Of a stretch of DNA of 64,000 bases, positions 13,998 to 53,020 are shown piece by piece. Each line of letters starts with the position of its first letter. Within the stretch, counting starts at the first letter, position 1. The notes under the pieces are model-generated. The model was given only the letters and a program-made list of their open reading frames with translations, was not told the DNA's origin and ran no database searches. The stretch comes from a virus (Duplodnaviria > Heunggongvirae > Uroviricota > Caudoviricetes). The DNA is taken from positions 27,213 to 91,212 of IMG/VR virus record IMGVR_UViG_3300005613_000005, one strand, 5' to 3'. Position numbers and translations under genes: made by a program.

Positions 13998-14001
13998 TCA
14001 A

Positions 14002-14017
14002 TTGACACTGCTACGCC
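14002..14017 (+). repeat. 16-nt conserved motif TTGACACTGCTACGCC (copy 1 of 4)
   Basis: near-identical copies at 14669, 15297, 30414, each after a gene end/hairpin. Confidence 0.7.
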
Positions 14018-14445: not shown

Positions 14446-14668
14446 AGTTAAAGACTGGAAGATCTATTTCTCGATGTGGGATACTCTGAACTGGGAGTCG
14501 ATAGACTACGATGAGCTGCACTTCTACTATGAGGATCCCAGATATTCCGTTCACGTGGTAGAATAATCTTATGGGTCGTGAGACCCAGCCGGACCAAAGT
14601 TCTGAGCCAGGAACTCGAGGACTTTACTGTCGGGCGCGTCCGGCGCCCGCAGGTTTCCCTTCAAAACA

Positions 14669-14684
14669 CTGACACTGTTACGCC
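14669..14684 (+). repeat. 16-nt motif CTGACACTGTTACGCC (copy 2)
   Basis: preceded by hairpin CGGGCGC-gtccg-GCGCCCG. Confidence 0.7.
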
Positions 14685-15256: not shown

Positions 15257-15296
15257 GTCAAGATACAGCCGGCCGCAGGTCAACCGCTTGCGGCCA

Positions 15297-15312
15297 CTGA
15301 CACTGCTACGCC
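15297..15312 (+). repeat. 16-nt motif CTGACACTGCTACGCC (copy 3)
   Basis: preceded by hairpin GGCCGCA..TGCGGCC. Confidence 0.7.
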
Positions 15313-28886: not shown

Positions 28887-29109
28887 GTTGTACGTGACGT
28901 ACGGCACGGACCGCACCGGCAAGAGCCAGCGCGGTAACGAGTTCGCTGTAGCCGAGGTGCGCTGGGGATCGAAAGGCGACTCCAGGTTGGCCGTGAACGT
29001 CGAGGTGTGGTGGCCGAAGGACCAACCCAAACCCAAGATCCTAGTACGCTACGGCGATGAGTGGATCGATGAGGTTATCGAGGAGACCGTGTTGAAGGAG
29101 ATTGAATGA
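28879..29109 (+). CDS. hypothetical protein
   Basis: 76 aa, GC-rich codons. Confidence 0.45.
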   Translation: MSRLYVTYGTDRTGKSQRGNEFAVAEVRWGSKGDSRLAVNVEVWWPKDQPKPKILVRYGDEWIDEVIEETVLKEIE

Positions 29110-29444
29110 AAGAATACCCGATGATCGAACGAAAACGCCGCGAGATAATAAACTTGAACGAGAACGGGAGACCGACGTCTCTCGTGCGCGAGTTCAACGA
29201 CCATAAACCTCTCAGGCAATCAAAGCGAGATCATCTCAAAGAGATGCGCCGGGGTCTAATAATATTCGCGGCGGGGATAACGATCATGACGCTGTTCGTG
29301 GTGCTCGTTCTGAGACCTTGGGAGAAGGACCTGGTCAAGCGAGCGCACGATATGGTCAAGGAACAGGTCGAGGTAAACCACGATCTGGTCGACCGCTACA
29401 ACGATCTCGCGGACCGGTACCGTGAGCTGTGGAGGTCGAGATGA
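29106..29444 (+). CDS. membrane protein
   Basis: central TM segment. Confidence 0.5.
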   Translation: MKEYPMIERKRREIINLNENGRPTSLVREFNDHKPLRQSKRDHLKEMRRGLIIFAAGITIMTLFVVLVLRPWEKDLVKRAHDMVKEQVEVNHDLVDRYNDLADRYRELWRSR

Positions 29445-29590
29445 GGTGGGCGATAGCGTTGGCCTTACTATTAAGTATAAGCTGTTCCACAACTAAGAAC
29501 TACTACGTCTGCACCGACGACCCGGAGGATCAGGGTCTGTGGGCAGTTCTGGACCAGCTCGCTGAGGAAGACGAAGATGAAGAAGACTAA
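29441..29590 (+). CDS. small lipoprotein-like protein
   Basis: ALLLSISCSTT lipobox-like. Confidence 0.4.
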   Translation: MRWAIALALLLSISCSTTKNYYVCTDDPEDQGLWAVLDQLAEEDEDEED

Positions 29591-29770: not shown

Positions 29771-29926
29771 ATGATTAAGAAGGTACTGATCTTGCTGGTG
29801 CTCGGTGCTGTAGGCGGATGGTATGCGGGTATAATTGGTCTGAGCAGTTCAAACGATGTTTACAGCGTTAGTCTTAACGTTGGTAAGATACTAAAATTCA
29901 TAGACGATGTTCGGGAGGACAGATGA
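29771..29926 (+). CDS. small membrane protein
   Basis: TM segment. Confidence 0.35.
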   Translation: MIKKVLILLVLGAVGGWYAGIIGLSSSNDVYSVSLNVGKILKFIDDVREDR

Positions 29927-30159: not shown

Positions 30160-30196
30160 GGTCGTGCTTATTCAAAACGTAAGCACGACCTTTTTT
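30160..30196 (+). terminator. rho-independent terminator
   Basis: GGTCGTGCTTA..TAAGCACGACC + TTTTTT. Confidence 0.6.
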
Positions 30197-30198
30197 AT

Positions 30199-30207
30199 TG
30201 GTATAAT
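30199..30207 (+). promoter_or_regulatory. extended -10 promoter TGGTATAAT
   Basis: 6 nt upstream of ATG 30214. Confidence 0.4.
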
Positions 30208-30213
30208 CTAAGT

Positions 30214-30417
30214 ATGTTTCCTTTTAACTACAACCTAGACAACGATCCTGAATGGGATTACCTCGACGATAAAGACTACGCTGACGGTTTTCGTTTCAAA
30301 AAATACTCAAACAAGAACAAGAAATGTGAATGTGGCTTAGACGCTGCTATCAAAGCTGGTGCTACCGGCGGCAGACACGCTGAGTATTGTCCGAAATACG
30401 AACGCCGCCGCGACTGA
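30214..30417 (+). CDS. hypothetical protein
   Basis: 67 aa; stop TGA lies inside motif copy 4. Confidence 0.45.
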   Translation: MFPFNYNLDNDPEWDYLDDKDYADGFRFKKYSNKNKKCECGLDAAIKAGATGGRHAEYCPKYERRRD

Positions 30418-30428
30418 CACTGCTACGC
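30414..30428 (+). repeat. 16-nt motif CTGACACTGCTACGC (copy 4)
   Basis: overlaps stop of 30214..30417; followed by AAACCGATACGAAT promoter-motif variant. Confidence 0.65.
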
Positions 30429-30495: not shown

Positions 30496-31167
30496 ATGAG
30501 ATTATGGATCGTTGTATTCTTACTTACACTAAGTCTTGACGCCAAGACGATAAGGATAGCGGTCATCGACAGCGGCATACACCGTACAGCATGGGACAAC
30601 AAAGCTCGATATGGTCTATGCAAAAAAGGTCACAAAGACTTTACAGGCACTGGCATAATAGACGACGACGGTCATGGCACTAATGTGTCTAGCTTGATAC
30701 ATTCTAAAGCAAAGAACACGAAATACTGTCAGGTGATAATTAAATTCTATACCTCTAAAAAACCATGGAACATGGACAGATATCTGAGAGCTCTGTTACA
30801 CGCCGTAACCTCTAAGGTAAACATCATTAATATAAGTGCTGCGGGTGACGGTTACAACCCAACTGAGCGTTGGCTAATACGACTTGCGTTCAGAAAAGGT
30901 ATCAAGGTCGTAGTAGCCGCCGGCAACGATGACAAAGATATAAATCTTAATCCAACGTATCCAGCCTCGTATGACAGAAGATTGATCGTGGTTGGTAATA
31001 AAAATAAAAGAGGCGTTCAAGACCACAGCAACTGGGGAAAGATCGTCGACGTTTTTGTGTCGGCGCACGATGTATCAGGAGACTACAATTTCGCTACCCC
31101 AATGTCAGGTACGTCACAAGCTACTGCTTTGGTCAGCGGATTGTTGATCAAAAAATTAAATAAATAG
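30496..31167 (+). CDS. secreted subtilisin-like serine protease (S8), minimal
   Basis: signal peptide; IAVIDSGI (Asp), DDDGHGTNV (His), AAGNDD, GTSQATALVSG (Ser). Confidence 0.75.
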   Translation: MRLWIVVFLLTLSLDAKTIRIAVIDSGIHRTAWDNKARYGLCKKGHKDFTGTGIIDDDGHGTNVSSLIHSKAKNTKYCQVIIKFYTSKKPWNMDRYLRALLHAVTSKVNIINISAAGDGYNPTERWLIRLAFRKGIKVVVAAGNDDKDINLNPTYPASYDRRLIVVGNKNKRGVQDHSNWGKIVDVFVSAHDVSGDYNFATPMSGTSQATALVSGLLIKKLNK

Positions 31168-31175
31168 GAGGAAGT

Positions 31176-31373
31176 ATGTTGATGAGATTGTTGGTGTACG
31201 CGATCTTGTTTATCGTTCCGGCTTATTTCTTAATAAGATGGGCGATAAAGGCGTACAAAAAAGCCGTGTTAGAAGAAAAAGCAGAACAACTAGACGATGA
31301 AAAGTTGTTTGGTAGGCGAATCAACAAATATCTCAAGAACAGGCGTGATATTGAAGAGTTTAAAGAGTTATAA
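31176..31373 (+). CDS. small membrane protein
   Basis: single TM segment. Confidence 0.5.
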   Translation: MLMRLLVYAILFIVPAYFLIRWAIKAYKKAVLEEKAEQLDDEKLFGRRINKYLKNRRDIEEFKEL

Positions 31374-31391
31374 TTTTAAAGAGGAGCTAAC

Positions 31392-32624
31392 ATGAAAAAG
31401 TATTTTATTCTGGGAGCAGCGGTTATCGGCCTGCTGTTTTTACTCTCGTTCGCCGGTAGTGTTTTTGAGACCAATGATCTTGGTTATTATCAGGTTAAAC
31501 AGGCTGCTATAACAGGTGATGTAAGTATAAGAAATGAACCTGGAACTTATCTGCAGAATTTTGGCAACATCAAGACCTATAAGATAGCAGACATATACTA
31601 TTTTTCAAAGCACAGTGAAGAAGGTGGAGATAGTCTGTCAGCAGCACCGATCAAAGTTACGTTCAACGGACGGTCAACCGCTGACATCACGGGTGTTTTA
31701 AAATACAGACTTTCTCGTAAGTTTGAAAATCAAGAGGCGCTTGCAGCAGAATACGGTTCTAATACCGCTGTCAAAGAAGAACTCATAAGACAAGCCGTTA
31801 ACGAAGCCTTGATTCAATCAGCTATTACCATGACAGCAGAGGAAGCTTATGCGCCAAGACTGGCGGAGTTTAAGAAACTGGCCGAAGATCAGTTGAAACA
31901 TGGTATCTACGAGAAATACTCAGAAACCGTTACAATTGAAGATCCAGCAGATCCAACTAAAAAACTAACGGCTAAAGTAGTTAGTGTTAAACGTAATAAA
32001 GACGGCAACCCAACCCTTGATTCTGTATCACCCCTTAAAAAGTACGGAATTGAGATCATACAGTTCACCATCAAGGATATAGATTTTGATGCTAGAACCG
32101 ACGAACTATTTGCTAAGAAAAAGGATGCAGAGATGAAGAAAATCGTAGCAGCTTCTGAAGCTCAAAAAGCTCAGCAAGATGCTATTACGGCTAAAGCACA
32201 AGGAGACGCTAGGATCGCCACTGCAAAAGCGAACGCTGAAGTTGAAAAGAAAACTGCCGTGATCAACGCTCAGAAAGAAAAAGAAGTTGCTGTGTTAGAA
32301 GCTCAGAAAAAATTTGAGGTCGCAGAATTTGAGAAGAAACAAGCCAAAGAAGAAGCCGCTGCTAAATTGGCCAGGGGAGAGGCTATCGCTAGAGTTAATA
32401 AACTTAAAGTAACAGCTGGTCTTACTCCTCAGGAAAGAGCTGAGTACAAGATGAAGACCGCCATCGGCGTAGCAGCTGAACTGGCTAAAGTCAAATTTCC
32501 TGGGATGATGGTACTCGGTGGTGGAAGCAACGGTAAAGGCGCCGTTGATCCTTTCGCTGCTGTTGGACTTGAAACCTTCATGAAAATCAACGATCGTATC
32601 TCCAACAAAGACAACGCGAAATAA
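31392..32624 (+). CDS. SPFH/band-7 (flotillin/YqiK-like) membrane protein
   Basis: N-terminal TM, SPFH-like core, long Ala/Lys/Glu coiled-coil (AEAQKAQQDAITAKAQGDARIATAKANAEVEKK). Confidence 0.6.
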   Translation: MKKYFILGAAVIGLLFLLSFAGSVFETNDLGYYQVKQAAITGDVSIRNEPGTYLQNFGNIKTYKIADIYYFSKHSEEGGDSLSAAPIKVTFNGRSTADITGVLKYRLSRKFENQEALAAEYGSNTAVKEELIRQAVNEALIQSAITMTAEEAYAPRLAEFKKLAEDQLKHGIYEKYSETVTIEDPADPTKKLTAKVVSVKRNKDGNPTLDSVSPLKKYGIEIIQFTIKDIDFDARTDELFAKKKDAEMKKIVAASEAQKAQQDAITAKAQGDARIATAKANAEVEKKTAVINAQKEKEVAVLEAQKKFEVAEFEKKQAKEEAAAKLARGEAIARVNKLKVTAGLTPQERAEYKMKTAIGVAAELAKVKFPGMMVLGGGSNGKGAVDPFAAVGLETFMKINDRISNKDNAK

Positions 32625-32671
32625 CAAGTAGAATAAATTACGGGGGAGCAAATTGCTCCCCCAGAGCTGTT

Positions 32672-37336: not shown

Positions 37337-39976
37337 ATGTCAGATAAAATGAGTAGTTTTGCAACCAATATCATGCAGATGAAATATTCACATACGAAAG
37401 CTGATGATACTAAAGAAACATGGGAAGATATAGCACGACGAGTCACGAAAAACGTGATGGCTGAAGTGCCGATCGACAGAAAATTAAAGAAAAGGATAGA
37501 ACAGGCAATATGCGATCGAAAATTTATCCCTGCTGGACGGTATCTGTATGCTTGCGGTCGCCAATATCATCAGGTGCAAAACTGTCTGCTTCTAAGAGCA
37601 GAAGACAGTCGAGAAGGTTGGGCAGAGTTACTGCATAAAGCAGCTATGGCACTGATGACCGGTGCGGGAATAGGCATAGACTATTCTGGCATCAGAGCTG
37701 AGGGCAAAAAAGTTCGCAAGACTGGGGGTTTCGCGACGGGACCTTTGGCGTTGATGCAGATGATGAACGAGTGCGGTAGAGGGATAATGCAGGGAGGTTC
37801 ACGACGTTCTGCCATATGGGCTGGATTATCCTGGCAACATCCTGACATACACAAGTTCATAGACGCGAAAAACTGGCCGTCCGAGATACGTGAGCTGAAG
37901 AGCAAGAATTTCAATTTTCCGGCCACGTTGGACGGCACTAATATATCGGTCATACTAGACGATGAATTTTTCAAAGCGTACAACAACGATCGTCATAGTA
38001 AACATGCCCACGCGCATTCAGTGTATTGGGCTACCATCAAGCGTATGCTAAAGACCGGCGAACCTGGATTTTCAGTTAACTTAGGACAGAACTCCAAAGA
38101 AACACTTAGAAATGCTCCAATTCATAGTAATACACATGTACTTACTAAAAATGGTTATAAACAAGTGATAGATATTGTTAATAAGCCAATAACAATTTGG
38201 ACAGGTAAACAATGGGCTCGAGATGTAGTATTTCATAAAACAATTGAAAATGCAGAGTTGATAAAAGTGAAATTTAGCAATAATCGAGAGATTGTATGTG
38301 AACCTAATCATGAATTTCTAGTTGAAAAATATATTGGAAAAGGCAAAAAATATCGTAAATTAGAATCAATTGATCGAGTTCGTGCCATAGATTTACAAGC
38401 TCAAGATATATTACATGTCAGCATGCCTACATATTATGAAAGTTCATTTGATGAAAATGGATATACTTTTGGGTATATATATGGCGATGGATGTTTTCAT
38501 AAAATATTACCTAGAGCTGAAATAACATTTTGTACTACTGAGTCACAAAAATGTTCTAAATATATAAATACTAAATGGCTAACAAAATCAGACGTTTATA
38601 TGGAAAATAGAGGATATCTACAAGCAAATACAAAAAATTTAGATATACTTAAAAATAGATGTAAATCTATGTTTCCCATAGATATATATGCTAAAGACAT
38701 CAATTTTATATGTTCTTTTATAGCTGGCTTATTTGATGCAGACGGTAATTATGTTCAAAAACGACAGTTATTAAGATTAGGTAGTATACACTTTAATTTT
38801 TTAAAAGGAACTCAGCGACTTTTAGATCAAATAGGAATAAGTAGTTCTATTATTAAAGGCAGTACCGGTAATTTTAAAAATAGTTCTAGCAAATCATGGT
38901 TTTTAATTATACATAGTAACTCTATAAAACATTTTCAACAATTAATACCTACAAAAAGAATAAATGTATGTGCTGATAATTATAATCCTTACAGACAAAC
39001 ATTGATTAAAGTTAAATCGATTGGTTTATTGGACGAACACAGTGACGTATATTGCTGTGATACTAAAGTACCAGAACATAGTTTTATGGCTGAAGGAATA
39101 ATAATATCGAACTGCACTGAAGTGTGCAGCGAAGACGATTCTGATATATGCAACCTAGGTTCTATCAATATGGCAGCGATAGACACGATAGAAGAGTTCA
39201 AGAAGGTCGTAGAACTAGCCACTGCGTTCTTGTTGGCAGGTACTCTATACTCCGATGTTCCTTATCCTAAGGTAGATCAGATCCGATCTAAGAATCGTAG
39301 GTTAGGACTAGGAGTGATGGGCGTTCACGAATGGTTGTTGAAACGAGATAAACCATACGCTCCTGACGAAGAACTAGGTAAATGGTTGGAGATATACGCT
39401 ACGTCAACCGAGATAGCAGCGAGGTATGCCGAACAATGGGACATATCTAAGCCTGTTAAAACTCGAGCTATCGCACCTACAGGAACTATTGGTATACTAG
39501 CAGAAACTACTACCGGTATAGAACCAATCTTTGCTGTTGCCTATAAGCGCAGGTATCTCAAACACCATACATGGCATTACGAGTACGTCGTAGATCCATG
39601 CGCGGCTCGACTAATTGAATCAGGAATTCCAGAATATAAAATCGAGGACGCCTTTAAACTATCGGAAGACATTGAGAAACGCGTCCAGTTTCAAGCGTGG
39701 GTGCAGCAGTACGTAGACCATGGCATATCTTCTACTATAAACTTACCGGCGTGGAAATCCCAACACAATAACGATTACAAGATATTACCGTTCGGTGAGA
39801 TGTTGTTGAAATACTTGCCCAAACTACGCGGCATAACGGTTTTTCCAGACGGCAGTCGCAGCGGTCAACCGTTGACTCCTGTCAAATATAGCACAGCGGT
39901 AAAATATACTGGAGAAGTAGTACAAGAACAAGCCGATATATGCTTAATAACTAAAGGTGGATCATGTGGCGAATAG
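37337..39976 (+). CDS. nrdJ: ribonucleotide reductase, class II-like (NrdJ-type), interrupted by an intein
   Basis: N-terminus ETWEDIARRV resembles monomeric class II RNR; no ATP cone; active-site segment ..NLGQN/CTEVCSEDDSDICNLGSINM parallels SNLCLEI...VCNLASL of RNRs; ~340-aa AT-rich insert carries LAGLIDADG (FIAGLFDADGNYV). Confidence 0.7.
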   Translation: MSDKMSSFATNIMQMKYSHTKADDTKETWEDIARRVTKNVMAEVPIDRKLKKRIEQAICDRKFIPAGRYLYACGRQYHQVQNCLLLRAEDSREGWAELLHKAAMALMTGAGIGIDYSGIRAEGKKVRKTGGFATGPLALMQMMNECGRGIMQGGSRRSAIWAGLSWQHPDIHKFIDAKNWPSEIRELKSKNFNFPATLDGTNISVILDDEFFKAYNNDRHSKHAHAHSVYWATIKRMLKTGEPGFSVNLGQNSKETLRNAPIHSNTHVLTKNGYKQVIDIVNKPITIWTGKQWARDVVFHKTIENAELIKVKFSNNREIVCEPNHEFLVEKYIGKGKKYRKLESIDRVRAIDLQAQDILHVSMPTYYESSFDENGYTFGYIYGDGCFHKILPRAEITFCTTESQKCSKYINTKWLTKSDVYMENRGYLQANTKNLDILKNRCKSMFPIDIYAKDINFICSFIAGLFDADGNYVQKRQLLRLGSIHFNFLKGTQRLLDQIGISSSIIKGSTGNFKNSSSKSWFLIIHSNSIKHFQQLIPTKRINVCADNYNPYRQTLIKVKSIGLLDEHSDVYCCDTKVPEHSFMAEGIIISNCTEVCSEDDSDICNLGSINMAAIDTIEEFKKVVELATAFLLAGTLYSDVPYPKVDQIRSKNRRLGLGVMGVHEWLLKRDKPYAPDEELGKWLEIYATSTEIAARYAEQWDISKPVKTRAIAPTGTIGILAETTTGIEPIFAVAYKRRYLKHHTWHYEYVVDPCAARLIESGIPEYKIEDAFKLSEDIEKRVQFQAWVQQYVDHGISSTINLPAWKSQHNNDYKILPFGEMLLKYLPKLRGITVFPDGSRSGQPLTPVKYSTAVKYTGEVVQEQADICLITKGGSCGE
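38093..39112 (+). other. intein with LAGLIDADG homing endonuclease domain inside RNR gene (approximate boundaries)
   Basis: insert begins at Ser after ..LGQN and ends ..IISN immediately before catalytic-type Cys (CTEV); markedly lower GC than flanking extein. Confidence 0.6.
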
Positions 39977-41480: not shown

Positions 41481-42182
41481 ATGGCTGAAAAGAACAATTT
41501 GAACGATAATGGAGATGAAACTTGGGTATACAAATTCGATGAAGAAGCAGCTCACAAATTCCGAGTTGACGTTAAGAACAAATCAAAGAGGGATCCCAAC
41601 GCGCCTATCATAGTCTACATCGACTCATACGGTGGAAACGTTGATGGCATGGCTAAGATGATAGATACCATGGACGAGATCCCCAATCCTATCATAACAG
41701 TATGCATGGGAAAATCTATGTCTGCTGGGGCTATCCTGTTGTCGCACGGTGACATGCGTTTCTGTTCAAAGAACAGCAGGATAATGATCCATGAGCTTTC
41801 AGCAGGGGCTTTTGGGAACGTTCGCGACATCGCCAACGATACCGATGAGTTGATGAGGATGAACAGGCATTGGATAGGTTTGCTGGCCAAGAACTGCTGC
41901 ATAAGCGGTGGTTACAACGGTATACGCAAAGTCATAAAAGACAACGACAACCAGAGCATCTATCTGGACGCTGTTATGGCAAAACAGTTCGGCATCGTCG
42001 ATTGCATCGGTGTTCCGACCACCAACGCCGCGGTCTTGTACGAGGTCCTGACGTTAAAAGAAAAAGAAAAGAAACACATGCGCATGGAAGACTTCGAGAA
42101 ACTCCAGAAGAAGATAGCAAAACAGGGTGCTAAGAAAAAAGCACGCAAGAAAAAAGCTACGAAAAAGAAAACTAAAAAATGA
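41481..42182 (+). CDS. ClpP-like serine protease (S14 family-like) with Lys-rich tail
   Basis: IVYIDSYGGNV...CMGKSMSAGAILLSHGD.RF...RIMIHEL matches ClpP core motifs. Confidence 0.6.
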   Translation: MAEKNNLNDNGDETWVYKFDEEAAHKFRVDVKNKSKRDPNAPIIVYIDSYGGNVDGMAKMIDTMDEIPNPIITVCMGKSMSAGAILLSHGDMRFCSKNSRIMIHELSAGAFGNVRDIANDTDELMRMNRHWIGLLAKNCCISGGYNGIRKVIKDNDNQSIYLDAVMAKQFGIVDCIGVPTTNAAVLYEVLTLKEKEKKHMRMEDFEKLQKKIAKQGAKKKARKKKATKKKTKK

Positions 42183-42685: not shown

Positions 42686-43540
42686 ATGAAATTATTTTTA
42701 TTATTGTGTATGCTGCTCGTGGGTACCAGCGCATTCGCCAAAAATGACAAGAAGCTCGACGTTGTTCTAAAAGATGATAACTTTTTTGCGGTTACTTCAG
42801 TCTTTACAGAACGTCTTTTAGAAGACTTCAATCGTAAAGTTATGACTTACGACGGCGATGAGCTCATCGTGTACATCGATAGCCCAGGAGGCAGCGTATT
42901 TTCTGTAGCGCGCATGGTATCTATAATGAGGTCATCTGAGGTTAAATTTACTTGCGTAGCTCGTTTCGCCGCTTCTGCCGCGTTCACGATGTTTCAAGCC
43001 TGCACCAACAGGTATATCTTGTACGATGGTATCATAATGCAGCACAATGCTTCTGGTATTTTCTGGGATGAATTTCCCAGGATCGAAACATTATATACCG
43101 CGATCAAAGATATAGTTACCGATATGGAAACACAGACAGCAAAAAGGATGAAGATGGAGTTCAAGGATTTCAAGGTGGCCATCAACAACAACCTGTGGTT
43201 GTCTAGGATCACCGCTCCAAAATACAACGCGATCGACGCCGTGATAAACACTATAAAATGCGAAGAGTCACTGATCAAGAAAACCATCACTAAAGCAGAA
43301 AGAAAATGCGGTTGGTTCAGCTGTTCGACTACCTATAAAAAATATTCAGCGTGCCCGCTGTTAACCCTTCCTCTTCCCGAACCTCCTAAAAAAGATAAAC
43401 CTGCTGATGATGGATGGTACGACGATGAATTCTACGATGGACATCCTTTATATCTTCCGTTTGATGAAAAAATCAACACGAACATCAAGAACTTCATGCA
43501 CATAGCCCCTTATACTATTAAAGATAAGATCATGAAATAA
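42686..43540 (+). CDS. secreted ClpP/S49-like serine protease paralog
   Basis: AAGGAG SD; signal peptide MKLFLLLCMLLVGTSAFA; LIVYIDSPGGSV...ARFAASAAFTMF...IIMQHN. Confidence 0.55.
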   Translation: MKLFLLLCMLLVGTSAFAKNDKKLDVVLKDDNFFAVTSVFTERLLEDFNRKVMTYDGDELIVYIDSPGGSVFSVARMVSIMRSSEVKFTCVARFAASAAFTMFQACTNRYILYDGIIMQHNASGIFWDEFPRIETLYTAIKDIVTDMETQTAKRMKMEFKDFKVAINNNLWLSRITAPKYNAIDAVINTIKCEESLIKKTITKAERKCGWFSCSTTYKKYSACPLLTLPLPEPPKKDKPADDGWYDDEFYDGHPLYLPFDEKINTNIKNFMHIAPYTIKDKIMK

Positions 43541-43613: not shown

Positions 43614-44900
43614 ATGAACGAACTCGATATCCTAGACTTGGTAGAAAACGCGATCGGCAAACAGAAAGAAGCTATCTTAAAAAAGCACAATAAGAACCAG
43701 AGGTTATTTGAGTTACTTGATGCAGCATTAAATTTCAAAAGAAAATTTTACATAAAGAAGTTTGATGACATGGTGACCGGAGTACAAAGCTATGTCCCGT
43801 CATTCCACGATCATTTCATGACATTGCTGACTGATCTAGAAACCAGGGAAATAGTCGGTAACGACGCTATTATACGAGTGACCAATCTGTTGCGAAGTGT
43901 TGGGCCGCAGCAGGCTAAATGGTACTCAAGGGTCATCCGCAAAGATCTTAAGATAGGGTGTAATTTAAGTACGGCTATCAAAGCAGGTTTCGAGATTCCA
44001 AAATTTGAGGTGCAACTCGCCAAAGACGGTAAGAAATGTAAGTGCATCGATAAAATTCTAAAGAACGGCGCGTTCTCGAGTCCCAAGTTTGATGGATACA
44101 GGTGCATCGCTATAATAGAAGATGGTGAGGCTAAATTATTATCTCGCAACGGTACCGTGTTCACCAACTTTCCATCGATAGAAAAGAGTTTAGTAGATAT
44201 GTGGTGGAGCGAAGAACACAACACCAGGTACATCTTCGATGGCGAGATAATGTCGGACGATTTCAACGCCATGCAGCAATCAGCGTTCGCTTCAAAACGC
44301 GGGACGACAGTAGGAGACGTTTCCTATTATATCTTTGACATGATCCCCATAACAGAATGGGAATCTAATGTGTTCACGACCAACGCTAAGGCTCGATATG
44401 AGCGCCTCGAACTCCTGTTTACATGGTCAGAATCAAAGATAAGAAGACTCAACATAACGAATTTAAAATTGGTTGAACACAAACCGGTTTCTACGATGGA
44501 CGAGATCCGGCAGATTGAACGAGAATACATAGAGAACGGTTTCGAGGGGGTGATGTTGAACCCAGATATCCCGTATTACAGGGGCGAAAAATCCAACAAG
44601 ATGTTGAAGTTCAAGACTATGAAATCGATGGACTGCGTAGTATTAGGAGTATATGAAGGTGAAAATGGTAAGAAATTTGAGGGAACATTGGGCGGTGTTA
44701 TAGTTCGTCAGGAAAATGGTATCGAATGTAAAGTTGGCAGTGGTTTTAACGAGATCAAAGGTTCATGGAAAGAGAGAGATGCTATATGGAGAAATCCGGA
44801 CGTGATAATCGGGAGAACGATAGAGGTAAAATATCAAGAAATAGGATCAGAAGGAAGGATGAGGTTTCCCGTGATCATGCGTTTTCGGGACGACAAGTAG
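43614..44900 (+). CDS. ATP-dependent DNA ligase
   Basis: motif I KFDGYR, III FDGEIM, IV EGVMLN, V LKFK. Confidence 0.7.
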   Translation: MNELDILDLVENAIGKQKEAILKKHNKNQRLFELLDAALNFKRKFYIKKFDDMVTGVQSYVPSFHDHFMTLLTDLETREIVGNDAIIRVTNLLRSVGPQQAKWYSRVIRKDLKIGCNLSTAIKAGFEIPKFEVQLAKDGKKCKCIDKILKNGAFSSPKFDGYRCIAIIEDGEAKLLSRNGTVFTNFPSIEKSLVDMWWSEEHNTRYIFDGEIMSDDFNAMQQSAFASKRGTTVGDVSYYIFDMIPITEWESNVFTTNAKARYERLELLFTWSESKIRRLNITNLKLVEHKPVSTMDEIRQIEREYIENGFEGVMLNPDIPYYRGEKSNKMLKFKTMKSMDCVVLGVYEGENGKKFEGTLGGVIVRQENGIECKVGSGFNEIKGSWKERDAIWRNPDVIIGRTIEVKYQEIGSEGRMRFPVIMRFRDDK

Positions 44901-48836: not shown

Positions 48837-48912
48837 GAGTCGGTGGTGATAACGGTAACACGTCAGGCTGTTAACCTGTAAGATCTAGGTTCGATTCCTA
48901 GCCGGCCCGCCA
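48837..48912 (+). tRNA. tRNA-Asn(GTT)-like, possible pseudo-tRNA
   Basis: cloverleaf with A2:C71 acceptor mismatch and weak anticodon stem; loop ctGTTaa; encoded CCA. Confidence 0.4.
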
Positions 48913-48935
48913 AAATTGAATAGGAGATTTAACGA

Positions 48936-49012
48936 GCCACCGTAGCTCAGAATGGCAGAGCGCGGGCCTGAAGAGCCCGGTGTCGGAGTTTCGATACCTC
49001 CCGGTGGCACCA
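48936..49012 (+). tRNA. tRNA-Phe(GAA)
   Basis: acceptor GCCACCG/CGGTGGC, loop ctGAAga, T-loop, CCA. Confidence 0.8.
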
Positions 49013-49046
49013 GGTATTTGAAAAACGAATAGTAGAATGAGATTGT

Positions 49047-49342
49047 GGAGACGGCAAGACCGTTACTGGGAGGTGAAAACCCCTGGAGGATAAAGTCCGG
49101 ACACCGAAGAGCAGCGTAGTGGCTAACGGCCACCCGTCAGGAAGACGAGGACTAGTGGAACAGAGACGAGCCAGTTAAGTCTGGAATGAAACGGCTAAAC
49201 TCTACGCGGTGCAACGCCAAATAGGCTAGCTATTGACCTATGCTCGGGGGACGTTGGCGGGTAGGCGGCAGTGAGCTGGAAGGTAACGACCAGCCCAGAT
49301 AGATTACGGTCGAGGTACAGAATCCGGCTTATTACCGTCTCC
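49047..49342 (+). ncRNA. rnpB: RNase P RNA (bacterial type A-like, reduced)
   Basis: GGAGGATAAAGTCCGGAC (P4 5' strand), GTGGAACAGAGACGAGCC, CGGTGCAACGCCAAATAGGC, GGGTAGGC..CAGTGAGC, GTACAGAATCCGGCTTAT (P4 3' strand); P1 pairing GGAGACGG/CCGTCTCC. Confidence 0.75.
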
Positions 49343-49370
49343 ATCCGGCCAGGAACAATCTCAAAACAAA

Positions 49371-49471
49371 GGAAGACTTATCCGAAAGATTCTGGGTAGC
49401 GGAGACTGTCTTGAAAACAGTTTGGTGAAATATAAGTAGCCGTCAGGGTTCGAATCCCTGGTCTTCCGCCA
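49371..49471 (+). tRNA. tRNA-Ser(TGA), long-arm type, unusually long (101 nt)
   Basis: acceptor GGAAGAC/GTCTTCC, loop ctTGAaa, long variable arm, CCA. Confidence 0.55.
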
Positions 49472-49473
49472 AA

Positions 49474-49557
49474 GGGGTATCTGCGGAGTGGGATCCGCGC
49501 GAGCCTGTAGAGCTCGTGCCGCTGCGCTAGGAGGTTCGATTCCTTAATACCCCACCA
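49474..49557 (+). tRNA. tRNA-Tyr(GTA)
   Basis: acceptor GGGGTAT/ATACCCC, loop ctGTAga, 13-nt variable arm. Confidence 0.7.
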
Positions 49558-49560
49558 GAC

Positions 49561-49636
49561 GCTCACGTAGCCCAACGGGAGAGGCAGCAGCTTCAAACGC
49601 TGAAGAGTGTTGGTTCGAATCCAACCGTGAGTACCA
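49561..49636 (+). tRNA. tRNA with anticodon CAA (Leu-reading) but short variable arm
   Basis: 76 nt, loop ttCAAac, 5-nt variable region, discriminator A. Confidence 0.5.
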
Positions 49637-49637
49637 A

Positions 49638-49714
49638 GCGGAGGTAACCCAACAGGAAGAGGTAGCAGGCTTAAACCCTGTTCAGCATGGGTTCAAATCC
49701 CATCCTCCGCACCA
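49638..49714 (+). tRNA. tRNA with anticodon TAA (Leu-reading), short variable arm
   Basis: acceptor GCGGAGG/CCTCCGC, loop ctTAAac. Confidence 0.55.
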
Positions 49715-49715
49715 C

Positions 49716-49788
49716 GCCTCGGTGGTCTAACAGATAAGGCACTGGTCTTCTAAGCTAATTGATGTGGGTTCGACTCCTACCTGAGACA
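49716..49788 (+). tRNA. tRNA-Arg(TCT)
   Basis: loop ctTCTaa; C2:A71 mismatch and weak anticodon stem; no encoded CCA. Confidence 0.45.
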
Positions 49789-49792
49789 CTAT

Positions 49793-49882
49793 GGAAGGTA
49801 AACTGGCATGGTGCCAGGCTTGCCTGCTAAGCAATGCGCGCTCTTATACGGGCGTATGGTTCGACTCCATTGCCTTCCGCCA
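49793..49882 (+). tRNA. tRNA-Ser(GCT)
   Basis: 90 nt, loop ctGCTaa, long variable arm, CCA. Confidence 0.7.
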
Positions 49883-49973
49883 AGTCTATTTAAAAATATA
49901 GTAAAACAACAATATGCATAATTATGTGCATCAACGGCTGTTTGAACAGCAATGGTAACAGAAAGTAGACATT

Positions 49974-50297
49974 ATGTCTAAAATTAAAGTTAAATTTGAA
50001 GAGCCTAGTTTTTGTAGTTACGACAATGTTTGGAAAATTTCATGGACTATAAACGGACGCAGAACTAATTCTTTCAGTAGTCGTGGCAAAAGAATAGGCC
50101 AGACTATCTCGCCTAAACAAATAGCAAATGAATATCGAGAGGCATTAAAAAGAGGACAAATTGTAGTTGATTTTTTAACTCAAAAAATCACCCGCAAACA
50201 AGCTATCAATAATTTAAAAGACCTGCGATTTCTATGCCCTAAAAACCAAACATCACATTTATTAACATTAGCAGAATTTGCTTTAAATTTACGTTAA
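49974..50297 (+). CDS. hypothetical protein inside tRNA array
   Basis: 107-aa AT-rich ORF between tRNA subclusters. Confidence 0.4.
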   Translation: MSKIKVKFEEPSFCSYDNVWKISWTINGRRTNSFSSRGKRIGQTISPKQIANEYREALKRGQIVVDFLTQKITRKQAINNLKDLRFLCPKNQTSHLLTLAEFALNLR

Positions 50298-50298
50298 T

Positions 50299-50376
50299 TG
50301 GTGTCCTCGACCGGATTTGAACCGGTGTCTCCGGAGTGAAAGTCCGATATCCTAGACCTGACTAGACGACGAGGAC
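50299..50376 (-). tRNA. tRNA-Glu(TTC), opposite strand
   Basis: rc GTCCTCG...ctTTCac...CGAGGAC-A-CCA. Confidence 0.75.
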
Positions 50377-50377
50377 C

Positions 50378-50455
50378 TGGTACTCGGGAGTGGACTTGAA
50401 CCACCGACCTCTGCCTTATCAGAGCAGCGCTACTAACCAACTGAGCTACCCGAGC
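50378..50455 (-). tRNA. tRNA-Ile(GAT), opposite strand
   Basis: rc GCTCGGGTAGCTCAGTTGGTTAG...ctGATaa...GGTTCAAGTCC. Confidence 0.8.
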
Positions 50456-50614
50456 ATGTTCGTTTCTGTTTACAGATTGTATGGGATAACGGGTGCGCGT
50501 TTACGCAACAGACAACTCAACGCACACCTTACATTCGATCTCAATAATAATAAGTTCAAGTGTACGTTTCATCATTAACCCATTATACCACACTTTGTTA
50601 GGTATAAATAATAT

Positions 50615-50812
50615 ATGGATAAGATAAGTAAGTGCGATAAACATCCTAAGTATAATGGATCGAAGAAACCCAGGACTGATTGCGATCAGTGTTGGAAGAT
50701 ATATTTGAAAAAACAAGAACGCAAGAAACGCGTGCCGATCAGACCGACCAAAGTGATACCAGACAAGACCAAGTACACGCGCAAGAAGAAACATAAGAAA
50801 AAAGAGGAGTGA
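50615..50812 (+). CDS. hypothetical basic protein
   Basis: 65 aa Lys-rich. Confidence 0.45.
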   Translation: MDKISKCDKHPKYNGSKKPRTDCDQCWKIYLKKQERKKRVPIRPTKVIPDKTKYTRKKKHKKKEE

Positions 50813-50814
50813 GT

Positions 50815-51093
50815 ATGTCAGTGACAGTAAGTTATCTACTCTCAATGGAAAAAAGTTTAAAAGCCAGGTTAGGCCAACTCAAAGAACTAAGGAGCGAGGT
50901 CTCAACGCTCGAGAGATGGGGCGACAGGGACAAGATCAAAGAACCGCAGTACGATGTAAAGGCGGTAGACAAGATGATAAGCGACATCAACAAGGTCCTG
51001 TTCGAGATCGACCAGAAGATCAAGGAGAGCAACGCTCGCACAAAAATTAAGATTAACGTAGACTATAACGAGTTAATGTCAGAGATCAAGTAA
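50815..51093 (+). CDS. hypothetical coiled-coil protein
   Basis: ATG 50815 after GAGGAG. Confidence 0.45.
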   Translation: MSVTVSYLLSMEKSLKARLGQLKELRSEVSTLERWGDRDKIKEPQYDVKAVDKMISDINKVLFEIDQKIKESNARTKIKINVDYNELMSEIK

Positions 51094-51298
51094 GCGATTA
51101 CTTGCATCCACGACATAGAAGAGGACTGACTTCGATGTCGAGAGAAGAACGTTCCACACTAATGCTGGACGCGTGGTATGACCCCGCATAAAACATTGTT
51201 GTTGATCAGGGGTGCTCACAAATTGTCCGTTGATTGTGGTTGGTTGTTGTCTTTAGTTCTTCTCGTCCTCTTTTTTTTATCACTTAATAAAAATTATA

Positions 51299-51307
51299 TG
51301 GTATAAT
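51299..51307 (+). promoter_or_regulatory. extended -10 promoter TGGTATAAT for second tRNA block
   Basis: upstream of 51500 tRNA block. Confidence 0.4.
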
Positions 51308-51499
51308 GTATTTTATGATTACTAACTTTATAAATCTCATAGTTCAGATACTGAAAGGAACATGTCAAGGCGTGGATACCAACGCCATGGTTCCTTGTCG
51401 TGTGCGTGCTGCCCGACCTATGCGACATATAAAGGCGCCATGGCGTAAGTAATCAAAATCTAGTAAGCAAATCAAATTAAATTTAATAGGTTTTGACGA

Positions 51500-51575
51500 G
51501 GGCTGGTGGTGATAACGGCCAACACGCCGCGCTTGCACCGCGGAGATCAGGGTTCGATTCCCTGCCGGTCCACCA
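51500..51575 (+). tRNA. tRNA-Ala(TGC)
   Basis: acceptor GGGCTGG/CCGGTCC (two G:U), loop ctTGCac. Confidence 0.7.
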
Positions 51576-51612
51576 AGATTTTTGACAACTGAATAGGTAG
51601 ATCATAAAACGA

Positions 51613-51687
51613 TGGGGAATAGTGCAATGGCTAGCACGACGGGCTTTGAACCCGTTAGTGGTGGTTCGAATCCACCTTCCCCAACCA
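51613..51687 (+). tRNA. tRNA-Gln(TTG)
   Basis: U1:A72, loop ctTTGaa. Confidence 0.75.
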
Positions 51688-51688
51688 T

Positions 51689-51764
51689 GCGAGTGTAGCT
51701 CACCGAGAAGAGCGTCGGTCTTCCAAACCGAAGGCAGCGGGTGCAAGTCCCGCCTCTCGCTCCA
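51689..51764 (+). tRNA. tRNA-Gly(TCC)
   Basis: loop ctTCCaa; one acceptor mismatch. Confidence 0.65.
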
Positions 51765-51765
51765 T

Positions 51766-51842
51766 GCCAGAGTAGCCCAATTGGAAGAGGCATACGGCTT
51801 AGACCCGTAGTGTTGTGAGTTCGAATCTCACCTCTGGTACCA
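51766..51842 (+). tRNA. tRNA with anticodon TAG (Leu-reading), short variable arm
   Basis: acceptor GCCAGAG/CTCTGGT, loop ctTAGac. Confidence 0.55.
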
Positions 51843-51843
51843 A

Positions 51844-51920
51844 CTGAGTGTAGCGCAGTCTGGTAGCGCGCCTGGCCTGGGCCCAGGAGGTCGGAGGTTC
51901 GAATCCTCCCACTCAGACCA
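51844..51920 (+). tRNA. tRNA-Pro(TGG)
   Basis: acceptor CTGAGTG/CACTCAG, loop ccTGGgc. Confidence 0.75.
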
Positions 51921-51929
51921 AGTAAACGA

Positions 51930-52004
51930 TGGCGCTTGGTGTAACAGATAGCATATCAGGCTACGAACCTGAAGATGAGGGTGCAATTCCTTCAGTGCCA
52001 ACCA
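51930..52004 (+). tRNA. tRNA-Arg(ACG)
   Basis: U1:A72, loop ctACGaa. Confidence 0.7.
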
Positions 52005-52011
52005 TATATAT

Positions 52012-52086
52012 GCCCGCGTGACCGAGTAGCTTAGGACACGGACTGCAAATCCGTGCACGCTGGTGCAAATCCAGCCGCGGGCTCCA
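52012..52086 (+). tRNA. tRNA-Cys(GCA)
   Basis: acceptor GCCCGCG/CGCGGGC, loop ctGCAaa. Confidence 0.7.
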
Positions 52087-52087
52087 C

Positions 52088-52163
52088 AGACGAGTAGCTC
52101 ACCGAGAAGAGCGCTAGCCTTACAAGCTAGAGGCAGTGGGTGCGAGTCCCTCCTCGTCTACCA
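52088..52163 (+). tRNA. tRNA-Val(TAC)
   Basis: A1:U72, loop ctTACaa. Confidence 0.65.
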
Positions 52164-52164
52164 T

Positions 52165-52244
52165 GGGCGTGTATCGGCTTACTCTTATAAGGTATAGAAA
52201 CCGTAATTGGAGACATGGAGGTTCGAGTCCTCCCACGCCCACCA
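52165..52244 (+). tRNA. atypical tRNA-like gene (anticodon undetermined)
   Basis: perfect acceptor GGGCGTG/CACGCCC and T-arm but no canonical D/anticodon arms. Confidence 0.35.
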
Positions 52245-52245
52245 C

Positions 52246-52319
52246 GCTCCATTAGTTCAGTGGCAGAACTGCTGTCTTGTAAACAGCGTACAGAGGTTCG
52301 ATTCCTCTATGGAGCTCCA
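52246..52319 (+). tRNA. tRNA-Thr(TGT)
   Basis: acceptor GCTCCAT/ATGGAGC, loop ctTGTaa. Confidence 0.8.
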
Positions 52320-52320
52320 G

Positions 52321-52394
52321 GGGCGGTTAGTGTAACGGCAGCACGTCGGCTTCCAAACCCGACAGTTTGGGTTCAAATCCTAAGCCGCCCGCCA
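52321..52394 (+). tRNA. tRNA-Trp(CCA)
   Basis: loop ttCCAaa. Confidence 0.7.
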
Positions 52395-52398
52395 ACGA

Positions 52399-52473
52399 GG
52401 TGCTATAGTGTAGTGGTTATCACGCCGGACTGTCTATCCGGAGACCGGGGTTCGATTCCCCGTAGCACCGCCA
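52399..52473 (+). tRNA. tRNA-Asp(GTC)
   Basis: acceptor GGTGCTA/TAGCACC, loop ctGTCta. Confidence 0.8.
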
Positions 52474-52492
52474 GATAAGGTATAATATCAAC

Positions 52493-52762
52493 GTGATAAC
52501 AACGATCAGTAAAAAAATTTTAGATATACTTTTAAACGTGACCGCAACGAACAGTCATGAAAAATGTCCTTACTGCGAACGAACTTTAAAGTACGACAGG
52601 ATAGTTGAGTGCGATATATACGAATCCGTTCATCCTACCAACTACGGTATGTGGTTTACGTTCACGTATAAAAAATGCCCGTGCAACTACGGCCCTTCTA
52701 CTGTAAGCAATCACTTGATCATCGATCATCTTCTATATAAATTAGGTATCAGGTACACGTAG
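52493..52762 (+). CDS. hypothetical Cys-rich protein inside tRNA array
   Basis: 89-aa ORF (CPYC...CPC); TATAAT upstream. Confidence 0.4.
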   Translation: MITTISKKILDILLNVTATNSHEKCPYCERTLKYDRIVECDIYESVHPTNYGMWFTFTYKKCPCNYGPSTVSNHLIIDHLLYKLGIRYT

Positions 52763-52800
52763 TCAAATTTGAGTTTTTAAACATATTTAAAGACCTAGAT

Positions 52801-52875
52801 GTGACTATAGTGTAACGGTCAGCACGAGAGGTTGTGGTCCTCTAAGTGAGGGTTCGAGTCCCTCTAGTCACCCCA
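52801..52875 (+). tRNA. tRNA-His(GTG)
   Basis: loop ttGTGgt; discriminator C73; no encoded G-1. Confidence 0.75.
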
Positions 52876-52944
52876 GGTCAATAAAAAATTTCCGATCGAA
52901 CGGGGGAAATCTGCAGCTTGGAAATTATACGGTATAATATGTAT

Positions 52945-53020
52945 GGCGGGATAGAGCAGTGGTCAGCTCACAGGTCTCATAAGCCTGGCGTCGGTGGTTC
53001 GAATCCACCTCCCGCTACCA
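52945..53020 (+). tRNA. tRNA-Met(CAT) (elongator-type, or Ile-lysidine)
   Basis: loop ctCATaa; lacks initiator hallmarks. Confidence 0.7.

Follow-up and report, generated by a model that had tools for sequence, protein, structure and literature searches.

Within a 64,000-nucleotide (nt) stretch of DNA from a tailed phage (IMG/VR record IMGVR_UViG_3300005613_000005; hereafter the window, which comes from a 157-kb metagenomic contig and whose coordinates are used throughout), three plus-strand genes encode an S8-family subtilase of 223 amino acids (30496-31167), a small membrane protein of 65 amino acids (31176-31373), and an SPFH/Band 7 protein of 410 amino acids (31392-32624). We consider it probable that this cluster is a single transcription unit composed of two evolutionarily independent parts, the subtilase on the one hand and a small-protein/SPFH module on the other. 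A sequence-only reading of the same DNA had placed three open reading frames (ORFs) of these lengths at these positions on one strand, in agreement with the ORF list, and had proposed that the protease acts in the envelope with the SPFH protein as its scaffold partner, in the style of HflKC–FtsH or stomatin–NfeD. That partnership is not borne out, as the adjacency of protease and scaffold is unique to the window phage and the small protein between them is not an NfeD. Judged from sequence comparison, it is the 65-residue protein, and not the protease, that is the conserved partner of the SPFH protein.

The evidence for this pairing comes from a comparison of gene neighborhoods, carried out by ORF calling and clustering around all fetched loci. 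These comprise 75 IMG/VR loci with a protease homolog and 80 with an SPFH homolog, each with ±10 kb of flanking sequence, as well as a sample of 83 bacterial and metagenome-assembled genome (MAG) loci carrying an SPFH homolog, giving ≈240 related loci in all. Directly 5′ of the SPFH gene, 34 of 62 nonredundant viral loci harbor a same-strand gene for a protein of ≤130 residues with an N-terminal membrane helix, with 1, 4, or 8 nt commonly shared between its stop and the SPFH start. Many of the small proteins have a common layout: a helix from residue ≈2 is followed by a basic W..KA(W/Y)KK segment and an acidic helix, and the C terminus carries an ..I..F.. motif; the 65-residue protein of the window, a single-pass membrane protein as the sequence-only reading had it, carries a charged helical tail that ends in ..IEEFKEL. 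A profile of 15 equivalent small proteins, from which that of the window was excluded, retrieves the 65-residue protein as the sole significant match among 584 window ORFs (E = 9e-10), and all of its matches among the ≈8,000 ORFs of the fetched loci (25 of 25) correspond to the ORF immediately 5′ of an SPFH gene. BLASTP further aligns the 65-residue protein with a small protein from a spirochaete (E = 4e-8).

Individual members illustrate the range of the module, which is found in bacteria (Spirochaetota and others) and in many unrelated phages. In Vibrio phage pVp-1, a 52-residue protein (gp0096) precedes the SPFH gene (gp0097) with a 1-nt gap, and crAss001 harbors the pair as gp92-gp91, with gp92 belonging to a different small-protein family. 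In Thiospirochaeta perfilievii (CP035807; locus L158, 7581-11203), ftsH, a gene for a 70-residue tail-in membrane protein, and an SPFH gene lie in this order on one strand, and the SPFH protein shares 51% identity with that of the window. The small protein and the SPFH protein are a conserved gene pair common to bacteria and phages, in which the small partner is frequent but not obligatory. The 65-residue protein itself matches no Pfam, NCBIfam, or PADLOC family and harbors no NfeD domain, and we found no description of a small partner protein of SPFH proteins in the literature searched.

The protease, in turn, is a gene independent of the SPFH pair. By tblastn, an S8 gene and an SPFH gene are found within 10 kb of one another on the window's own contig and in none of the 155 other viral loci, crAss001 included, and none of the 83 bacterial and MAG loci has an S8 homolog near the SPFH gene. 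Seven related phage contigs carry both genes, separated by 13.7 to 24.6 kb according to the reported coordinates. Among the closest homologs, no S8 gene lies close to that of the SPFH protein with 56% identity or to the SPFH gene on a 176.6-kb contig, nor does a Band_7 gene lie close to those of the proteases with 45% identity. The usual neighbors of the S8 gene are those for DNA polymerase III alpha (directly upstream in 28 of 73 loci), a UvsX-like recombinase, an exonuclease, ClpP, and ligase; a second group of S8 loci is characterized by the order ClpP, fam65, x, S8, a trypsin-like or S49-like serine protease that is either exported or anchored in the membrane, and ligase. The window retains this block, with ClpP at 41481, a fam65 homolog at 42127, an exported ClpP-like protein at 42686, and ligase at 43614, in which S8 is absent; its S8 gene lies 11 kb upstream of the block, beside the SPFH pair. 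Because the ClpP-to-ligase block is kept while the S8 gene adjoins the SPFH pair, we read the adjacency as a lineage-specific rearrangement peculiar to the window phage, in which the protease would be a chance neighbor, and a functional pairing is not supported. No conserved protease or NfeD-like neighbor of the SPFH gene is evident from the neighbor families in bacterial contexts (spirochaete and Fibrobacter clades). We also considered ClpP-like genes near SPFH genes as a link of the stomatin–NfeD kind and rejected it, in that most encode the cytoplasmic ClpP type on the opposite strand and only one locus, L087, has an adjacent exported protein.

The first part of the cluster is a genuine minimal subtilase as judged from its sequence. 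Profile searches with Peptidase_S8 and Band_7 had been proposed alongside the sequence-only reading, and both families are matched above their Pfam cutoffs. The S8 protein matches Peptidase_S8 (PF00082) with E = 1e-17 and 64.8 bits (cutoff 21.8), and the family profile matches subtilisins in the PDB with E-values down to 1.8e-33. The motifs singled out from the translation (IAVIDSGI, DDDGHGTNV, and GTSQATALVSG) are present, and the complete catalytic triad assigned from them is confirmed by pairwise alignment with subtilisin BPN′, in which D25, H60, N144, and S207 correspond to D32, H64, N155, and S221, catalytic His and Ser included. The S8 protein ends at the equivalent of BPN′ residue 237, so that the last ≈38 subtilisin residues are absent. 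Database searches return 453 homologs of 215 to 290 residues, almost all of them metagenomic proteins without a name; when 20 of these are aligned, D25, H60, N144, and S207 are invariant, as are C42 and C78. An AlphaFold2 (AF2) model has a predicted local distance difference test (pLDDT) score of 94.3, and Foldseek places this predicted structure at query-normalized template modeling scores (TMq) of 0.73 to 0.80 relative to subtilisins, thermitase, and proteinase K.

Residues 1 to 17 of the S8 protein are a predicted signal peptide, followed by a mature domain of ≈205 residues with no I9 propeptide. A hydrophobic N-terminal segment is found in 51 of 54 homologs, in line with the signal peptide claimed by the sequence-only reading; it ends ≈17 residues ahead of the catalytic Asp, so the signal peptide would join the catalytic domain directly with no propeptide between them. 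The segment is short and of the cleavable type, with no membrane anchor, and the protein is predicted to be soluble after export. From the hydrophobic N terminus of the homologs and the invariant Cys pair we infer that the S8 protein is exported and that Cys42 and Cys78 would form a disulfide. Most likely, this protease acts independently in the periplasm, alongside the other exported proteases of the lineage. The literature searched contains no description of a minimal exported subtilase family of this kind; subtilases of ≈205 residues that bear a signal peptide, lack a propeptide, and are truncated at the C terminus make up a mostly metagenomic family that is relevant to how minimal proteases fold. 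Two specific identities were considered. The S8 protein scores 53.9 bits with the NCBIfam model for QhpE (NF049966, 219 positions), far below the cutoff of 165, and is thus not a QhpE. A PADLOC scan gave the cluster no identity as a known antiphage defense system: the S8 protein matched only the generic "subtilase" model (29 bits) and IetS (E = 0.0019), and neither the SPFH protein nor the 65-residue protein matched any defense-system model.

The second part of the cluster centers on the SPFH protein, which matches Pfam Band_7 (PF01145) with E = 1e-8 and 35.8 bits (cutoff 23.6) and PHROG 11908, to which no function is assigned, with E = 2.7e-55. The AF2 model (pLDDT 79.8) reproduces the architecture proposed for this protein, namely an N-terminal transmembrane segment, an SPFH core, and a long coiled coil: a membrane helix (residues 2-24) leads into the SPFH core (25-232) and a single helix of 108 residues (234-341), followed by a helix at 346-365, a Gly-rich linker, and a conserved C-terminal helix. 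By Foldseek, the model resembles every cage-forming SPFH structure in the PDB (E = 3.5e-9 to 1e-4), with HflC, erlin, prohibitin, flotillin, QmcA, stomatin, and the vault protein as top matches and HflK/C among them; HflC is also the best PDB match of the family sequence profile (E = 1.6e-4). NCBIfam returns no HflK or HflC model and only a 16-bit FloT match, and tblastn with the SPFH protein finds just its own gene in the window. As this is the single SPFH gene and NCBIfam offers no matching model of the HflK, HflC, or flotillin type, its sequence marks the protein as belonging to a separate SPFH subfamily, which presumably forms homo-oligomers. The family comprises >200 homologs and constitutes its own PHROG.

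The distribution of charged residues around the membrane helices predicts how the two proteins of the module would be oriented. In 136 members of the SPFH family, Lys/Arg residues ahead of the membrane helix average 2.5, versus 1.0 on its C-terminal flank, with a bias toward the N-terminal flank in 113 of the 136 and a reversed bias in three; by the positive-inside rule, this predicts that the SPFH and coiled-coil domains are periplasmic, as in HflK/C. The small partner proteins have a mean of 0.33 flanking Lys/Arg residues ahead of the helix and 3.33 after it, and their charged tails should therefore be cytoplasmic, giving the 65-residue protein a predicted N-out, C-in topology.

We propose that the two parts of the cluster would work as follows. 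The first would be a Sec-exported, propeptide-less, C-terminally shortened subtilase that operates in the periplasm. The second would consist of a small N-out/C-in single-pass protein and a periplasm-facing SPFH protein anchored by its N-terminal helix, which, from its modeled fold, may assemble into a homo-oligomeric cage or ring of the HflK/C type on the periplasmic face of the inner membrane. The helix of the small protein would sit in or at the enclosed membrane patch with its tail reaching the cytoplasm, and the module would fence off that patch so as to control access to an inner-membrane client during infection. In E. coli, the HflK/C cage controls access to inner-membrane FtsH. For this reason, and because one bacterial clade has the pair behind ftsH, FtsH would be the leading candidate for the client, an identification by analogy that we put forward tentatively. 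A broader proposal, to which we assign a low probability, is that phages of many lineages use this bacteria-derived module to cage or blind host FtsH or another inner-membrane quality-control machine, thereby shielding membrane proteins of the phage, with the subtilase recruited in the window phage as a lineage-specific periplasmic effector. Although phage SPFH genes have been annotated since at least 2006, the pairing with a small protein, the predicted periplasmic orientation, and the ftsH-linked cellular copy together furnish a testable two-protein hypothesis.

Several observations weigh against this account. The tight spacing of the three genes, the signals they share, and the predicted periplasmic location of both protease and scaffold leave room for a functional link, specific to this lineage, between the subtilase and the SPFH protein. 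In locus L087 (9753-12117), genes for an 81-residue small transmembrane protein, a 413-residue SPFH protein, and a 269-residue exported ClpP-like protein follow one another; apart from the window, no other locus was found in which the SPFH pair adjoins a gene of the exported-protease type. L087 hints at an occasional protease association of that pair, although two protease adjacencies in ≈62 SPFH loci are what chance predicts, according to a rough estimate that assumes ≈3 exported protease genes among ≈250 genes and a span of ±2 genes. The three loci in which the pair adjoins ftsH (L158, L163, and L164, out of 80 bacterial loci) come from one spirochaete clade and so amount to a single evolutionary event; ftsH adjacency as a general property of the bacterial homologs was accordingly rejected, and we keep it as a hint rather than as evidence. 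Approximately 45% of viral SPFH loci have no recognizable small transmembrane gene directly upstream, a fraction that depends on crude ORF calling, by which some such genes may have been missed. Finally, function is assigned by analogy only, in that the literature searched contains no characterized phage SPFH protein. Band 7 ORFs have been annotated in the T4-like phages 44RR, Aeh1, and RB43 since 2006 (PMC1524935), and SPFH/Band 7 genes have been annotated in Vi01-like phages (PMC10892097), in Pseudomonas phages (PMC8540360), and in Burkholderia phage CSP3 (PMC10269572); these four reports offer annotation or speculation on FtsH and lysogeny.

These points bear on three other explanations of the cluster. 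That the subtilase and the SPFH scaffold are a functional pair analogous to FtsH–HflKC or stomatin–NfeD, in which a cage confines or regulates the protease in the periplasm and thereby remodels the host envelope, is an attractive reading of the operon that our analysis leaves unsupported and that we regard as quite unlikely. In its favor, the three genes adjoin one another in the same orientation, with gaps of 8 and 18 nt, and are bounded by a terminator and a hairpin; a common transcript is probable, the protease and the scaffold should both face the periplasm, and in L087 a different exported serine-protease-like gene directly follows the SPFH pair. What speaks against it is the complete lack of the adjacency in the other viral, bacterial, and MAG loci, the wide spacing of the two genes in those relatives that have both, and the unlinked state of the closest homologs, together with the chance-level frequency of protease adjacencies. 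FtsH and long NfeD are membrane-anchored protease partners of SPFH proteins, whereas the S8 protein has no membrane anchor, and the intervening small protein has no NfeD domain.

The small-protein/SPFH module might alternatively be a superinfection-exclusion or lysis-timing device that stiffens or organizes the inner membrane, blocking the DNA of later phages or delaying the holin, with no client of the FtsH type. Its occurrence in many unrelated lytic phages (crAss-like, T5-like, T4-like, and the window myovirus) suits such a generic envelope function, the SPFH gene of crAss001 has a peptidoglycan hydrolase gene two positions downstream, and that of the window follows small membrane or lipoprotein-like ORFs at 29.1 to 29.9 kb. 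We nevertheless consider this unlikely, as no endolysin or holin family that would denote a lysis cassette is detected in the ten ORFs neighboring the cluster, the flanking genes belong to nucleotide metabolism (deoxynucleoside monophosphate kinase, phosphoesterase, and ribonucleotide reductase), cellular homologs occur in ordinary chromosomal contexts that point to a housekeeping membrane role, and the literature searched offers no support for it. A further explanation holds that the cluster is recently acquired accessory cargo with no coordinated role, in which the protease alone degrades envelope proteins of the host or of competitors and the SPFH pair is a bacterial passenger of little effect. 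Neighboring ORFs of 67, 73, and 81 residues have no homolog in related loci and mark the region as variable, and the SPFH pair has cellular homologs at 50% identity; both families are, however, widespread and conserved in phages, with invariant catalytic residues among the 453 S8 proteins and a dedicated PHROG for the SPFH proteins, which implies selection in viral genomes and makes cargo very unlikely. Our preferred reading thus continues to be that of one probable transcription unit made up of two independent parts.

The extent of that unit is set by the signals around it. Shine–Dalgarno sites precede the starts of the S8, 65-residue, and SPFH genes (GGAG, AGGAGG, and GAGGAG, respectively). 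Upstream, an intrinsic terminator at 30160-30190 on the plus strand, with a 12-bp stem followed by the U-run TTTTTTAT, closes the preceding unit; its folding energy of −19.1 kcal/mol (z = −4.95 relative to shuffled sequences) grades it as strong. It is followed at 30199-30207 (plus strand) by an extended −10 promoter-like element, TGGTATAAT; nine copies are observed in the window on both strands (at 1223, 8822, 27925, 30199, 48706, 50582, 51299, 55062, and 59071) versus 0.58 expected by chance, an excess of ≈15-fold. These sites are consistent with a class of promoters dependent on the host sigma-70. The copy at 30199-30207 lies 7 nt ahead of the start codon region of a 67-residue ORF (30214-30417, plus strand), which has no match in Pfam, PHROG, or NCBIfam and no homolog among 157 viral loci. 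Since this ORF lies between the promoter-like element and the S8 gene, a unit driven from that element would start at 30214 rather than 30496, with the 67-residue ORF as its probable first gene. The sequence-only reading had the operon begin right after the terminator, promoter, and a 16-nt motif; the signals are real and co-transcription is plausible, but the intervening 67-residue ORF shifts the start of the unit.

The 16-nt motif, ACTGACACTGCTACGC, is found at 30413-30428 on the plus strand, where it overlaps the stop codon of the 67-residue ORF and lies 68 nt ahead of the S8 start, and is a candidate phage-specific promoter or regulatory site. It occurs in four copies in the window, all on the plus strand (14001-14016, 14668-14683, 15296-15311, and 30413-30428), versus 0.28 expected, with the consensus A(C/T)TGACACTG(C/T)TACGC. 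A GC-rich hairpin lies directly ahead of three of the copies (14001, 14668, and 15296), two of which are 45 to 70 nt 5′ of an ORF start, and on these grounds a phage-specific promoter class is plausible. A second common element, CCGATCCGA, follows ≈30 nt 3′ of two motif copies, and the variant CCGATACGA is found at the copy ahead of the S8 gene; read from the sequence, the motif has no sigma-70 −10 box at the correct spacing. A structured RNA at the copy near the S8 gene was considered and rejected, as it folds no better than shuffled sequence (z = +1.0). At the 3′ end of the cluster, a GC-rich hairpin at 32642-32662 on the plus strand (−18.8 kcal/mol, z = −3.24) follows the SPFH gene; it has no U-tract on the plus strand, and the terminator scan scores only the minus strand as terminator-like, such that it may act as a weak or partial terminator of the cluster. 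The tight spacing and the flanking signals make it likely that the cluster is co-transcribed as one unit.

The window phage is predicted to encode two exported serine-protease-like proteins, the S8 protein included. The other, at 42686-43540 on the plus strand, was described in the sequence-only reading as a separate secreted ClpP/S49-like protease, and this assignment stands: the protein opens with MKLFLLLCMLLVGTSAFA ahead of KND, a classic signal peptide that predicts export, and its ClpP/S49-type matches are weak, all falling below curated cutoffs. Its gene occupies the slot in which relatives have the S8 gene, and adjoins a first gene of ClpP fold (41481-42182, plus strand) that matches Pfam CLP_protease and encodes a cytoplasmic-looking product. 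In the related loci L005-L007, L010, L014, L021, L023, L030, L063, and L067, the S8 gene usually adjoins another exported or membrane-anchored serine protease; this neighbor is either trypsin-like or S49/ClpP-like, in both cases inside the ClpP-to-ligase block. The window contains no homolog of the trypsin-like exported protease of its relatives. The pattern suggests a lineage-wide set of periplasmic proteases in related phages, and a group of large Mx1-like phages is predicted to encode several exported serine proteases.

The phage has a contractile tail, as denoted by a tail sheath gene, and carries genes for DNA ligase, ClpP-like proteins, and an intein-containing ribonucleotide reductase. 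By tail sheath, the nearest cultured relative is Myxococcus phage Mx1 (30% identity), and a search of 50,697 phage records for DNA nearly identical to that of the locus returned no match. Precomputed Pfam matches place an intein with a LAGLIDADG endonuclease domain in the ribonucleotide reductase large subunit (37337-39976, plus strand). A full-length bacterial class A RNase P RNA is found at 49047-49346 on the plus strand (RF00010, 179.6 bits versus a gathering score of 100), within an array of 20 tRNA genes (48837-53017). Just 5′ of the terminator at 30160-30190 lie three small envelope-type ORFs on the plus strand: a 112-residue protein that has a membrane helix in its interior and ends in a coiled coil (29106-29444), an overlapping ORF of 53 residues with a signal sequence and Cys (LLSISC; 29429-29590), and a 51-residue membrane protein (29771-29926). 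The overlapping pair resembles an i-spanin/o-spanin arrangement, and no family match was found for either of its members or for the 51-residue ORF.

Set against known systems, the S8 protein shares with subtilisin BPN′ and thermitase the Asp-His-Ser triad and the oxyanion Asn in canonical order and fold; it differs from them by the missing I9 propeptide and by its shortened C terminus. It further departs from classical subtilases in its invariant Cys42/Cys78 pair and in the motif GTSQATA, which stands where these have GTSMA(S/A)P. Its size is like that of QhpE, a minimal subtilase of ≈220 residues. The SPFH protein has homologs in gp91 of crAss001 and gp0097 of pVp-1 (29-31% identity over 73-98% of the length), and both of these have a small transmembrane gene directly upstream, as in the window; the small protein of crAss-like phages belongs to a different family with an IPFYYW motif, and neither homolog adjoins an S8 protease, unlike that of the window.

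The operons of stomatin, QmcA, or flotillin with NfeD likewise consist of two genes, for an SPFH protein and a small membrane protein, that are often translationally coupled, and QmcA, stomatin, and flotillin are among the fold matches of the phage protein. NfeD harbors an NfeD/OB (oligonucleotide/oligosaccharide-binding) fold, whereas the small partner of the phage type has neither and spans 50 to 80 residues; some NfeD proteins carry a fused domain of the ClpP/S49 type, whereas the protease beside the phage SPFH protein is an S8 subtilase. QmcA and flotillins face the cytoplasm, unlike the predicted periplasmic orientation of the window SPFH protein. With HflK and HflC of the E. coli HflK/HflC–FtsH system, the phage protein shares an N-terminal membrane helix, an SPFH domain that in its own case is predicted to lie outside the cytoplasm, a long helix of the coiled-coil type, and conservation of the C-terminal segment. 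HflC is its best PDB match both by sequence profile and by fold. HflK and HflC are encoded as a gene pair, whereas the window phage has a single SPFH gene whose product no HflK or HflC model of NCBIfam recognizes; the main helix of the phage protein, at 108 residues, is much longer than that of HflK/HflC, and its partner is a 65-residue tail-in membrane protein.

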